A DNA stretch of 42,780 nt from Enterobacteria phage mEp043 c-1: the sequence record NC_019706.1. One strand, 5' to 3'. Under the pieces are notes generated by a model. That model did not search any database. It had not been told where the DNA came from and saw only the letters and a program-made list of their open reading frames with translations. Numbering within the stretch: the stretch's first letter is position 1; every line of letters starts with the position of its first letter. Made by a program: the position numbers and the translations under genes. Shown here piece by piece: positions 19,190 through 37,528 of this stretch.

Positions 19190-19863
19190 TGTCTGACTTT
19201 GGCGCAATGATATTAATGGAGAACGGCAATCCCTTTGTTACACCACAATCAACGCCTTTCTGCCTCTACGGAAAATACTCCTTCAATTCCTCAGCTAATG
19301 GCAGCTCTCAGCAGGTGGCGCAATATCTTTCGGTTCCTGACGATTATCCGGCAATGGTCTTCATAAAAACGACTAATACTGCGCAGCCGACCCCGGTCAT
19401 TTCATATCGGATTGGAGGAAATGTCTATATTAGTGGCGTAAATCCCTATAACCAGGGCTTTACGCTGACAGCATATGTATTTGCAATTTTTCCGCAAACA
19501 CTTCCCGCGTGGGGATTTGCTATCTGGGATGCCTCCGGGAAGCTTGTTCTGACGAACGAATCAAGGGTGCTTTCTGATCTGCAAACAGTGGGCACGCCAG
19601 GTGCAAGCGGCGGGATTAATATTGACCAGACGCTGAGCGGGTCATGGGCTGTTGCGCCTGCTCAGTTGGGTCAGACCATCATTGTGAATAATTCAACCAA
19701 GCCTCCGACTATCTACACGATAAATGCTTATTCTTCATGCAGGTTTGACGGGGCCAATACGAGGATAAACGCAGGGGGGACCTCCACTGGGGCAGGTTCA
19801 CCTGGAGGGGGAACGAATACTGGCATTTCATTAACCGCCATAAATACAGCGGCCTATGATTGA
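19189..19863 (+). CDS. Hypothetical protein (tail-associated?)
   Basis: 224 aa; GTG start overlapping the upstream stop, GGAG RBS at 19177-19180; internal WDASGK motif; Gly/Thr-rich C-terminus. Confidence 0.5.
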   Translation: MSDFGAMILMENGNPFVTPQSTPFCLYGKYSFNSSANGSSQQVAQYLSVPDDYPAMVFIKTTNTAQPTPVISYRIGGNVYISGVNPYNQGFTLTAYVFAIFPQTLPAWGFAIWDASGKLVLTNESRVLSDLQTVGTPGASGGINIDQTLSGSWAVAPAQLGQTIIVNNSTKPPTIYTINAYSSCRFDGANTRINAGGTSTGAGSPGGGTNTGISLTAINTAAYD

Positions 19864-19900
19864 TTGATCGTTTTTAGCGATCAATAACATAATATTGATC
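19864..19900. promoter_or_regulatory. GATC-dense inverted repeat upstream of the lipoprotein gene
   Basis: TTGATCG-TTTTTAG-CGATCAA inverted repeat (19864-19884) plus a third GATC at 19897-19900; three Dam sites in 37 bp of AT-rich intergenic DNA. Confidence 0.3.
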
Positions 19901-19974
19901 TATCCAATCAATTATACCCACCAGAATTGTATTGGTATCGTCTAAGATACTGAATTCCTCTGGATACTATCAAA

Positions 19975-20208
19975 ATGAGAAAACTGATTATCTGCATGGC
20001 AGGCGCTGTCATGCTTACAGGATGCGCTGGCGTAATTGAGAAACAGGAACCAGTTTGCAGCGGCACTGCAATCGTTGGCGGTCAGGAAACTACGGTTCAG
20101 ATTTACGGTGTGCGTAAACAAAACAACCAGACGCAGTACCGGGCTGGATATCCTTTCAGCTGGCGCTGGGTAAGTGCGAATACATTTACCGAAACAACCT
20201 GCAAATAA
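19975..20208 (+). CDS. Small secreted lipoprotein (Cor-like superinfection-exclusion candidate)
   Basis: 77 aa; signal peptide with lipobox (LTGC); AT-rich moron immediately downstream of the J cluster, followed by its own terminator. Confidence 0.55.
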   Translation: MRKLIICMAGAVMLTGCAGVIEKQEPVCSGTAIVGGQETTVQIYGVRKQNNQTQYRAGYPFSWRWVSANTFTETTCK

Positions 20209-20230
20209 CCCACTACGCTTAAACATAAAC

Positions 20231-20252
20231 CTCGCTCCGGCGGGGTTTTTTT
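20231..20252 (+). terminator. Rho-independent terminator after the lipoprotein gene
   Basis: CTCGC-TCCG-GCGGG hairpin followed by a T7 run. Confidence 0.5.
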
Positions 20253-20268
20253 ATTGCCTGGAGAAAAT

Positions 20269-21201
20269 ATGCTTTATAACACCGGCACCATCGCCATTAA
20301 TGGAAATACCGCCACCGGGACGGGTACAAACTGGACGGAACCGGCCAGCCAGGTCCGCGCTGGCCAGACGATTATCGTGATGTCTAACCCGGTGCAGCTG
20401 TTTCAGATTTCATCCGTGAACAGCGCCACGTCAATGACGGTTACGCCTGCTGCATCACCGGCGCTGAGCGGCCAGAAGTACGGCATTCTGGTATCAGACA
20501 ATATCTCGGTTGATGGGCTGGCGCTGGCCATGTCGCAGCTTATCAAGGAGTATGACGAGAATATTGGTGCGTGGGAGACGTTCGCCACAACCTCAGCCAA
20601 CCAGAACATTACCGTTACGATCAATGGCACCAGTTTATCAATCCCGGCTCTTGGGAAATTACTGCAGAAGGGGAGCAACGGAGCTTTGCCGGTTAATCAA
20701 GGTGGTACCGGCGCAACGAATGCCGCAGGCGCTCGCACAAACCTTGGTTTGGGAGAAGGTTCTCCAGCTATTGGCGTTCCGTTCTTCTGGCCGTCCGCTG
20801 CAATGCCAAATACTGTAATCGACAGCTGGTCCAGTATGGTGTTTTTGAAGTTCAACGGCGCGAAATTCTCTGCCACTGATTATCCTGTGCTGGCGAAAGT
20901 GTTTCCTTCGCTGGTATTACCTGAAGCCCGCGGTGATTTCATTCGTGTCTGGGATGACGGGCGAGGTGCAGATGGTGGTCGCGAATTATTAAGCTGGCAG
21001 GAAGCTACAAACTTTTCTCAGTTTGCCGGGAATATAGGCGTAGGTGCTGGACACGCAATTAACTTTCATGATGGCATCGTCGGAAATCAGCCAGGATTTT
21101 CACGATTTAATTTCACCAGTAACCCTGCGGGTGGTGGTGTGAATTTTGTTGCTGTCAGACCGCGAAATATTGCATTCAACTTTCTTGTAAGGGCTAAATA
21201 A
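20269..21201 (+). CDS. stf: Side tail fibre protein
   Basis: 311 aa; GGAG RBS; contains the tail-fibre motif LPVNQGGTGATNAAGARTNLGLG. Confidence 0.8.
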   Translation: MLYNTGTIAINGNTATGTGTNWTEPASQVRAGQTIIVMSNPVQLFQISSVNSATSMTVTPAASPALSGQKYGILVSDNISVDGLALAMSQLIKEYDENIGAWETFATTSANQNITVTINGTSLSIPALGKLLQKGSNGALPVNQGGTGATNAAGARTNLGLGEGSPAIGVPFFWPSAAMPNTVIDSWSSMVFLKFNGAKFSATDYPVLAKVFPSLVLPEARGDFIRVWDDGRGADGGRELLSWQEATNFSQFAGNIGVGAGHAINFHDGIVGNQPGFSRFNFTSNPAGGGVNFVAVRPRNIAFNFLVRAK

Positions 21202-36563: not shown

Positions 36564-37004
36564 ATGAAAAAACTAACCTTTGAAATTCGATCTCCAGCAC
36601 ATCAGCAAAACGCTATTCACGCAGTACAGCAAATCCTTCCAGACCCAACCAAACCAATCGTAGTAACCATTCAGGAACGCAACCGCAGCTTAGACCAGAA
36701 TCGAAAGCTTTGGGCTTGCCTTGGTGACGTCTCTCGTCAGGTTGAATGGCATGGTCGCTGGCTGGATGCAGAAAGCTGGAAGTGTGTGTTTACCGCAGCA
36801 TTAAAGCAGCAGGATGTTGTTCCTAACCTTGCCGGGAATGGCTTTGTGGTAATAGGCCAGTCAACCAGCAGGATGCGTGTAAGCGAATTTGCGGATCTAT
36901 TAGAGCTTATACAGGCATTCGGTACAGAGCGTGGCGTTAAGTGGTCAGACGAAGCGAGACTGGCTCTGGAGTGGAAAGCGAGATGGGGAGATCGGGCTGC
37001 ATGA
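36564..37004 (+). CDS. ninB: NinB recombination protein
   Basis: 146 aa from ATG 36564; near-identical to recalled lambda NinB (MKKLTFEIRSPAHQQNAIHAVQQILPDPTKPIVVTIQERNRSLDQNRKLWACLGDVSRQVEWHGRWLDAESWK). Confidence 0.95.
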   Translation: MKKLTFEIRSPAHQQNAIHAVQQILPDPTKPIVVTIQERNRSLDQNRKLWACLGDVSRQVEWHGRWLDAESWKCVFTAALKQQDVVPNLAGNGFVVIGQSTSRMRVSEFADLLELIQAFGTERGVKWSDEARLALEWKARWGDRAA

Positions 37005-37528
37005 CTATCAAATCAAATACGCCAGCACACGACAAGGACTGCTGGCAAACGCCGCTTTGGCTTTTTGATGCACTGGATATTGAGTTTGGATTCTGGCTGG
37101 ATTCGGCAGCGAGCGACAAAAATGCTCTGTGCGCTCACTGGCTAACTGAGGCTGACGACGCGCTAAATTCTGAGTGGATAAGCCACGGTGCAATCTGGAA
37201 TAACCCACCGTACAGCAATATCAGGCCGTGGGTGGAAAAAGCCGCTGAGCAGTGCATACAACAGCGACAGACGGTAGTGATGCTTGTGCCAGAGGATATG
37301 TCTGTCGGATGGTTCAGCAAGGCTCTGGAGAGTATTGACGAAGTTCGCATCATCACTGATGGACGGATTAATTTTATCGAACCATCGACAGGGCTGGAGA
37401 AGAAGGGAAACAGCAAAGGTTCCATGCTGCTGATTTGGCGACCGTTCATCAGTCCTCGACGGATGTTTACTACCGTATCCAAAGCGGCATTGATGGCGAT
37501 CGGGCAGGGCGTCAGGAGGGCAGCATGA
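37001..37528 (+). CDS. DNA N6-adenine methyltransferase (phage Dam-like)
   Basis: 175 aa from the ATG overlapping the ninB stop; catalytic NPPY motif (WNNPPYSN). Confidence 0.8.

Follow-up and report, generated by a model that had tools for sequence, protein, structure and literature searches.

What kind of gene, and what kind of control element, occupy positions 19864-20255 of Enterobacteria phage mEp043 c-1 (NC_019706.1), and is this gene under Dam-dependent control? The question was raised by an earlier note on the genome, whose 42,780 nucleotides were all analysed here and are referred to as the window. The note described a lipoprotein gene after the J cluster and read the GATC sites in front of it as the signature of a Dam-dependent epigenetic switch. 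Our analysis reveals that the segment is the cor moron of an mEp213/phi80-type phage, made up of a regulatory cassette of ~110 bp, the cor gene and a terminator. On balance, we lean towards control of cor by an epigenetic switch of the Dam/OxyR type. The comparison behind this view is strong, as it combines OxyR-type half-sites, their conservation and a recurring cassette, while the switch itself is unproven; the GATC density to which the note appealed does not exceed chance, and OxyR, the proposed partner, was not named there.

The identity of the gene follows from its product, for which the relevant features are:

19975-20208, plus strand: cor, 77 amino acids, assigned through NF047972, PHROG 1119 and identity to phi80 Cor
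19975-20022, plus strand: signal peptide of Cor, followed by the codon of the lipidated Cys at 20023-20025; boundaries as in the phi80 annotation

The 77-aa lipoprotein gene of the earlier note is indeed present, with an N terminus that reads MRKLIICMAGAVMLTG before the lipidated C and a lipobox L-T-G-C at residues 14-17. The note had placed it where Cor usually sits, and homology searches bear this out: the protein matches the NCBIfam profile NF047972 with 140.9 bits (cut-off 31) and PHROG 1119 with an E value of 7e-37, and shows 100% amino acid identity to phi80 Cor. Judged by sequence, the product is Cor, the FhuA-blocking superinfection-exclusion lipoprotein, and the gene is thus one already known. 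This outer-membrane lipoprotein inactivates the FhuA receptor, and lysogens are thereby shielded from T1, phi80 and further phages that depend on FhuA, a protection paid for in ferrichrome uptake. In lysogens of phi80, N15 and HK022, Cor has been reported to block FhuA-dependent phages and to lower ferrichrome uptake (PMC3594210).

Upstream of cor, GATC sites start at 19866, 19879 and 19897, with spacings of 13 and 18 bp. Three sites are therefore present as the note had stated, within a span of 35 bp and not 37 bp, and they form the sole GATC triple of less than 60 bp in the window; the nearest other sites are at 19576 and 20619. GATC is rare in this DNA (132 observed, compared to 167 predicted by base composition and 221 by a Markov estimate on trinucleotides). 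When the 132 sites are placed at random, an equally tight triple arises somewhere in the window with P = 0.41, and we have dropped GATC density as evidence in itself. The significance of the cluster comes instead from its sequence context and its conservation.

The sequence context is defined by four overlapping or adjacent elements:

19864-19884, no strand assigned: palindrome TTGATCGTTTTTAGCGATCAA, of the form TTGATCG-N7-CGATCAA, holding GATC1 (19866-19869) and GATC2 (19879-19882)
19867-19881, no strand assigned: half-site 1, ATCGTTTTTAGCGAT, 8/10 to the OxyR half-site consensus ATAGnTnnnAnCTAT, flanked by GATC1 and GATC2
19898-19912, no strand assigned: half-site 2, ATCTATCCAATCAAT, 7/10 to the same consensus, with GATC3 at 19897-19900
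19889-19903, no strand assigned: alternative second half-site, ATAATATTGATCTAT, 8/10, in the 7-nt-gap register known from agn43

GATC1 and GATC2 lie, as the note had observed, in a perfect inverted repeat, whose 8-bp arms ATTGATCG and CGATCAAT (19863-19870 and 19878-19885) are 7 nt apart. All three sites are found inside or at the edge of OxyR-type half-sites in the promoter region, and this arrangement is conserved. Half-sites 1 and 2 are separated by 16 nt, or 31 bp from centre to centre. Scored against the full consensus ATAGnTnnnAnCTAT-N7-ATAGnTnnnAnCTAT, the 37 bases at 19867-19903 (ATCGTTTTTAGCGAT-CAATAAC-ATAATATTGATCTAT) reach 16/20, the best OxyR match on either strand of the 42.8-kb window, with a runner-up of 13/20; only 4 of 500 composition-preserving block shuffles reached 16/20 anywhere in the window, and the actual match falls on the GATC cluster. 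By the same scoring, agn43 and Mu mom, whose OxyR/Dam sites are validated, obtain 14/20 and 13/20, and the half-sites of opvAB obtain 10, 8, 10 and 7. The cor half-sites thus lie at the level of validated sites in both registers (8/10 and 7/10 with the 16-nt gap, 8/10 and 8/10 with the 7-nt gap). A half-site at the 17-nt gap of gtr was also considered and rejected, as the score at that offset is poor and the conserved register is 16 nt.

The half-sites are placed next to a predicted promoter:

19913-19941, plus strand: predicted cor promoter, with a weak -35 element TATACC (19913-19918) and an extended -10 element TGGTATCGT (19933-19941)

A promoter annotated in the phi80 record FN582354 maps to this region, and the extended -10 pattern TGnTAnnnT is present in all Cor relatives and stands at the same offset (69) in other cassettes. 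Transcription is predicted to start near 19948-19949, which puts the half-site centres at about -74 and -43, beside the weak -35. An alternative promoter, TTGATC (19864) and CATAAT (19888-19893) with an 18-nt spacer, would place OxyR over the core promoter; it was not adopted because its -10 falls in a gap that varies across the cassette family. A search of the region for structured RNA in Rfam gave no match above threshold, merely weak terminator-like ones.

We assessed conservation on Cor loci that were retrieved by protein similarity and are therefore an unbiased sample with regard to GATC. The first extract comprised 140 nt upstream of cor at 80 IMG/VR loci (48 distinct sequences); the second, of 125 nt, added the phi80, N15, Kpn_R1 and ECP1 records (52 distinct sequences). 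All three GATCs are kept in 42 of the 52, at fixed positions (mostly -109, -96 and -78 from the ATG). The block 19860-19918 is about as conserved as the cor coding sequence, while its flanks vary; within it, the variable positions are the palindrome loop and the gap. Half-site 2 is conserved in the Cor family, always at one position, and its presence at 19898-19912 accounts for the conservation of AATCAATTATA.

Several Cor relatives have lost GATCs. The HK022 group (L061-L069) lacks GATC1 and GATC3, L010 and L012 each carry one GATC changed to GATA, N15 (L087) retains a single site and a Klebsiella phage two, and in ECP1 (L092) and L070 a 29-bp deletion between ATCAAT repeats has removed half-site 2. 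The variants that retain the cassette layout (HK022 group, L010, L012) leave the OxyR-consensus positions of both half-sites intact, and half-site 1 of L012 even rises to 9/10. Such a pattern would be expected of a protein site under selection whose sensitivity to methylation is optional, a weak indication given only four events. The variants of the HK022 group, L010, L012, N15, ECP1 and L070 are candidates for locked alleles. T1, ES18 and phi315 carry cor without the GATC region or cassette.

The same arrangement is found in front of genes other than cor. Scanning IMG/VR for exact TTGATCG-N7-CGATCAA returned at least 120 loci, so that the counts given here represent a sample. In 73 of the 120 matches listed, a third GATC lies 17-19 bp outside the palindrome, on one side only and in 70 cases at exactly 18 bp; most of these three-GATC loci are not cor loci. 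A 20-base cassette pattern was then scanned over one genome per species (596 Gb), where ~1 chance match is expected. It gave 66 matches, 60 of them in records titled Enterobacterales or Orbales, which are Dam-bearing lineages. Four outlier matches lack half-site 2 and fit the approximately one chance match expected. Enterobacterial cassettes were also seen in two unrelated assemblies, a 526-bp contig of Kocuria sabuli (L233) and a 1207-bp contig of a Mucilaginibacter metagenome-assembled genome (L221, cor type); both contigs are probably contamination of those assemblies.

A non-redundant set of 47 cassettes with less than 65% identity yields the consensus aTTGATCG.T...A.CGATCAAT.a.....aAttGATCtgta.aA.C.ATT.taa, and a -10-like g.tA...tt stands at a constant distance behind it. 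In this family, half-site 1 reads ATCGnTnnnAnCGAT and half-site 2 reads ATC(T/G)nTnnnAnCnAT from the A of GATC3, 16 nt from half-site 1. The score to the half-site consensus peaks at precisely this offset among the 47 (mean 7.06/10, compared to ~2.5-3.5 at most others). Within half-site 1, where the search left N7 unconstrained, T6 and A10 occur together in 14 of 22 non-redundant cassettes versus 8 of 42 other matches (Fisher p = 7e-4). The elements run in the order half-site 1, half-site 2, extended -10 and start codon, over ~110 bp, with 103-111 nt between the palindrome and the start codons of genes unrelated to each other. This constant distance indicates that the unit is a complete promoter-plus-leader module.

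Besides Cor, the cargo of the cassette includes a secreted protein with a TonB C-terminal domain (PF03544), an adenine methyltransferase of the D12 class (PF02086), membrane peptides (39 and 61 aa), a 47-aa protein and several further small proteins, secreted or membrane-bound, without a family match. The TonB_C family, retrieved by protein similarity only, has all three GATCs in 15/15 loci, among them one lineage at 74% protein identity. The cassette type of the 39-aa peptide (L108) had no match in E. coli genomes.

Some of these cargo genes deserve a description of their own. The 115-aa secreted TonB_C protein, found behind the cassette at L196 (2532-2990), L280-L294 and L214 (Yersinia massiliensis), matches PF03544 with an E value of 3e-15 and belongs to PHROG 1267, labelled 'Rz-like spanin'. 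The -35 and -10 elements of its cassette (TATACCC...TGCTATCGT) are much like the cor elements. When free in the periplasm, a TonB C-terminal domain could jam receptors that depend on TonB, and may thus represent a second, unrelated way of excluding TonB- or FhuA-dependent phages. At L100, L195 and L250 (Yersinia pekkanenii), a D12-class (Dam-like) methyltransferase (PF02086) stands directly 3' of a three- or four-GATC cassette, which suggests that expression of this enzyme itself depends on GATC methylation.

A further cassette type, …AATCGATCTGTATAAACGTTTATAAAA…, has a half-site 2 much like the OxyR region of Mu mom. At L103 (3554-3833, minus strand) it is followed by ~100 nt that end in a strong terminator and contain no convincing open reading frame; the type also occurs at L112, L120, L124, L137, L165, L189, L219, L222, L238, L262, L266 and L272. 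The ~100-nt unit behind it may be a small RNA, and gave no match in Rfam. Gilliamella species from the honeybee gut (Orbales; L216, L253, L259, L260, L269, L278) carry a four-GATC cassette, …CGATCAATAAGATCTTATTGATCTGTTTAAACGAT…, in front of larger genes, whose products have 394-447 aa and include a lipoprotein.

A close parallel among known systems is the gtr operon of P22, for which binding of OxyR to the half-sites, and its loss on Dam methylation, were shown by electrophoretic mobility shift assay (Broadbent et al. 2010, PMC2909390). Its OxyR(A) and OxyR(C) half-sites, TTGATCGGTAACAACGATCAA and TTGATCGCTTGTATCGATCAA, agree in form with the cor palindrome (TTGATCG-N7-CGATCAA), and each has two GATCs at a distance of 13 bp. 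Like cor, gtrABC is a prophage moron, one that alters the cell surface and blocks superinfection. In both systems the distance to a second half-site is about three helical turns, and OxyR acts at gtr independently of its redox state. The two differ in complexity: gtr has three half-sites and four GATCs, with alternative OxyR positions AB (ON) and BC (OFF), compared to two half-sites and three GATCs at cor. The half-sites of gtr are separated by 17 nt and those of cor by 16 nt, with centres at about -102, -70 and -38 compared to about -74 and -43.

The geometry of cor is closer to that of Salmonella opvAB, a horizontally acquired locus whose ON state confers phage resistance at a fitness cost and for which OxyR is an activator (Cota et al. 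2016, PMC4856963). The promoter-proximal OxyR half-sites of opvAB are centred at -75 and -43, the latter carrying a GATC; expression needs OxyR, whose reduced form uses this 32-bp spacing (PMC4856963). These positions nearly match the predicted -74 and -43 of cor, and the opvAB half-site at -43 scores 7/10 to the OxyR consensus. Unlike cor, opvAB has four half-sites and as many GATCs, whose methylation patterns are opposite in the two states. It encodes inner-membrane proteins that alter the length of the O antigen, whereas Cor is a FhuA-blocking lipoprotein.

E. coli agn43 (flu), which also sits on a cryptic prophage, has three GATCs within one OxyR site, placed almost as in the 7-nt-gap register of cor: between the core GATCGTTTATATCGATC of agn43 and the core GATCGTTTTTAGCGATC of cor there are two mismatches, with GATC spacings of 20 and 13 bp compared to 18 and 13 bp. 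The register conserved in the cor cassette family is a different one. Because the OxyR site of agn43 lies downstream of the transcription start, OxyR represses there. In the mom gene of phage Mu, three clustered GATCs (18 and 15 bp apart) lie upstream of the promoter as in cor, and the half-site type ATCTGTATTACCGAT is also half-site 2 of many cassettes; the order and orientation of the sites relative to the gene differ from cor. The mom gene belongs to the lytic phase; its expression is gated by methylation and is not known to phase-vary. No paper was found that links cor, or a moron cassette of this kind, to Dam, GATC or OxyR, in a search outside which most subscription journals fell.

OxyR as the binder, sensitivity to methylation, bistability with heritable phase variation, and the direction of control are what we infer for cor from these systems. 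An OxyR tetramer would bind both half-sites only when their GATCs are unmethylated, whatever its redox state, as in gtr, opvAB and agn43. Bound OxyR would shield the GATCs from Dam, and methylated GATCs would keep OxyR off. Competition between OxyR and Dam after each replication would then produce two heritable states among lysogenic cells, Cor-ON and Cor-OFF. In the favoured direction, the OxyR-bound, unmethylated state would be ON and OxyR would activate cor; this preference is based on the analogy to opvAB, with its activator OxyR and half-sites at -75 and -43, and on the weak -35. The opposite polarity, with OxyR as a repressor as in agn43 and mom, is conceivable, since the sequence does not fix the direction. 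Because Cor lowers ferrichrome uptake, a switch would have a cost-benefit reason in bet-hedging.

A number of points weigh against this reading. The GATC cluster, taken alone, is no denser than chance would produce. Of the two registers, the one that reaches 16/20 is not kept in relatives (13/20 in phi80), as the left arm of ATAATATTGATCTAT is variable, and the conserved one has a half-site 2 of only 7/10, two matches of which are forced by the GATC. Its gap of 16 nt (31 bp) differs by one base from the canonical 17 nt (32 bp) of gtr and opvAB. The positions -74 and -43 are provisional because the transcription start is a prediction. Since the cassette scans required GATCs, GATC conservation outside Cor and TonB_C is partly a matter of ascertainment. 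Finally, phi80, N15 and HK022 lysogens have classically been described as simply resistant, so that any OFF fraction may be small.

The phage has a methyltransferase of its own, which the earlier note had connected to the cluster:

37001-37528, plus strand: phage N6-adenine DNA methyltransferase of the PF05869 'Dam' family, adjoining ninB in the nin region

The assignment holds, with 216.9 bits and an E value of 1.8e-64 to PF05869 (cut-off 28.1) and 264.2 bits to TIGR01712, phage N6-adenine methyltransferase (cut-off 97); the open reading frame upstream encodes NinB. Its connection to a cor switch is unsubstantiated; the gene lies beside ninB in the lytic nin region, and host Dam would suffice for a switch in the lysogen. 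The enzyme, a candidate for GATC specificity, might pre-set virion DNA to the methylated state, and any tie between it and the cor switch is speculative.

The same switch logic could operate with another partner, a LysR-type regulator such as HdfR or LrhA, or a different host or phage protein, which would bind the dyads and be blocked by Dam methylation. ATCG-N7-CGAT is a generic LysR-type box (T-N11-A), and so another regulator could bind the palindrome; moreover, HdfR binds a 25-bp region of std with three GATCs, the first two of them 13 bp apart, in a methylation-blocked manner (PMC6735912). Both points count against OxyR, as do the 31-bp spacing of the half-sites, compared to the canonical 32 bp, and the modest match of half-site 2. 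On the other hand, the std GATCs are spaced by 13 and 9 bp versus 13 and 18 bp at cor, half-site 1 shares the form of gtr half-sites that bind OxyR, and the half-site 2 type ATCTGTATnAnCGAT is present in the OxyR-bound region of Mu mom. The conserved T6, A10, C12, A14 and T15 are OxyR consensus positions, and the presence of the cassette across genera and phage immunity types argues for a conserved host factor. We regard a partner other than OxyR as unlikely. Among other binders, FNR, IHF and Fur were judged by eye only, without a scoring matrix: the spacing fails for FNR (TTGAT-N4-ATCAA), as the TTGAT and ATCAA arms are 7 and 11 nt apart, and neither IHF nor Fur, attractive because Cor affects iron uptake, gave a good fit. 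A Pap-type Lrp/Dam switch, with two GATCs ~100 bp apart in Lrp sites, was rejected as well, given the 13/18-bp spacing at cor and no distant second GATC.

It is also possible, if rather improbable, that OxyR or a similar protein represses cor on unmethylated or hemimethylated GATCs, so that expression reports the methylation of phage DNA and no ON and OFF lineages exist; fully methylated virion DNA, produced by the phage methyltransferase, or established prophage DNA would be examples. Mu mom provides the precedent, as three GATCs in an OxyR site upstream of the promoter gate its expression, and the mom region and the cassettes share the ATCTGTAT..CGAT half-site type. The presence of a PF05869 methyltransferase gene in the lytic nin region, and the description of phi80, HK022 and N15 lysogens as protected, would fit such gating, the latter as a mostly-ON methylated state. 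Against it, half-sites at -74 and -43 with a weak -35 resemble the activating layout of opvAB, the GATC specificity of the phage methyltransferase is putative, and each chromosomal or prophage OxyR/Dam site studied (agn43, gtr, opvAB) phase-varies. A third explanation dispenses with Dam altogether: cor would be expressed constitutively from an ordinary promoter, and the dyads and GATCs would be kept as an upstream promoter element, a site for SeqA or a nucleoid protein, or a recombination joint for moron exchange. The statistically ordinary GATC cluster, the ability of an extended -10 to function without an activator, the Cor protection still given by lineages with GATC loss (HK022, N15), and the constant cassette boundaries, which also suit a recombination module, are in its favour. 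However, conservation tracks the OxyR half-site positions and not mere AT-rich sequence, three GATCs persist in 42/52 Cor upstream sequences and 15/15 TonB_C loci despite the depletion of GATC in the phage, and the cassette is confined to Enterobacterales and Orbales, which are Dam-bearing lineages. Constitutive expression appears very unlikely to us. The Dam/OxyR switch with heritable states remains the reading that we prefer.

The position of cor in the genome supports its description as a moron. It has its own predicted promoter and its own terminator, and lies between the gp23 homologue and the tail fibre gene:

20227-20255, plus strand: intrinsic terminator, a 9-pair stem with a 4-nt loop (stem-loop 20227-20248) and a T-run

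The terminator had been recognised in the earlier note, and the mEp213 and phi80 records annotate one at the matching position. Upstream lie J, a gp22 homologue and the gp23 homologue (ending at 19863); downstream, a side tail fibre gene starts at 20269 and is followed by a tail fibre assembly gene. The window is collinear with phage mEp213, in which J, cor and the tail fibre gene have the same coordinates, and phi80 carries cor at the same place, after J-gp22-gp23. The AT-rich surroundings of the earlier description apply to the intergenic stretch (GC content 0.37 in 19800-19999) and not to the cor coding sequence (0.45-0.51).

Two further observations concern this junction and the distribution of the element. 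At L128, L134 and L192, a cassette with a degenerate third GATC (GATT) occupies the same J-to-tail-fibre junction in some phages; it abuts the start of a tail fibre gene homologous to 20269-21201 of the window, but is directed away from this gene. The cor element is present in 49/5426 complete E. coli genomes, and the chromosome of E. coli XL10-Gold, a cloning strain in common laboratory use (L279, NZ_CP081008 1857031-1862171) contains a phi80-type prophage with cor and an intact three-GATC cassette.

Taken together, the regulatory element of cor is a probable addition to the Dam/OxyR switch class, simpler than gtr and opvAB, with two half-sites, three GATCs and a 31-bp spacing, and unusually portable. 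Cor is the textbook case of prophage receptor blocking and has hitherto been treated as constitutive in lysogens; by blocking FhuA, it gives protection from T1, T5-like and phi80-like phages as well as from colicin M and albomycin, while ferrichrome iron uptake suffers. If cor is switched as proposed, it is a bet-hedging trait, and lysogen populations would always mix protected cells with iron-competent, sensitive ones. This would bear on escape in phage therapy, on plaque and efficiency-of-plating measurements on lysogens, and on models of prophage benefit. The cassette is open to direct tests with the existing phages phi80, mEp213 and HK140, and in laboratory strains in which a phi80-type prophage is already present. 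More tentatively, and short of calling it probable, we suggest that prophages of Enterobacterales and Orbales have attached a portable ~110-bp epigenetic switch cassette to many unrelated accessory genes, so that conversion and exclusion traits would be phase-variable and HK022-type variants would be locked versions. If the cassette acts alike before other genes, phase variation of prophage accessory genes would be far commoner than gtr, opvAB and agn43 suggest, and the cassette itself, if the switch reading is true, would be a compact, natural and transferable bistable promoter.

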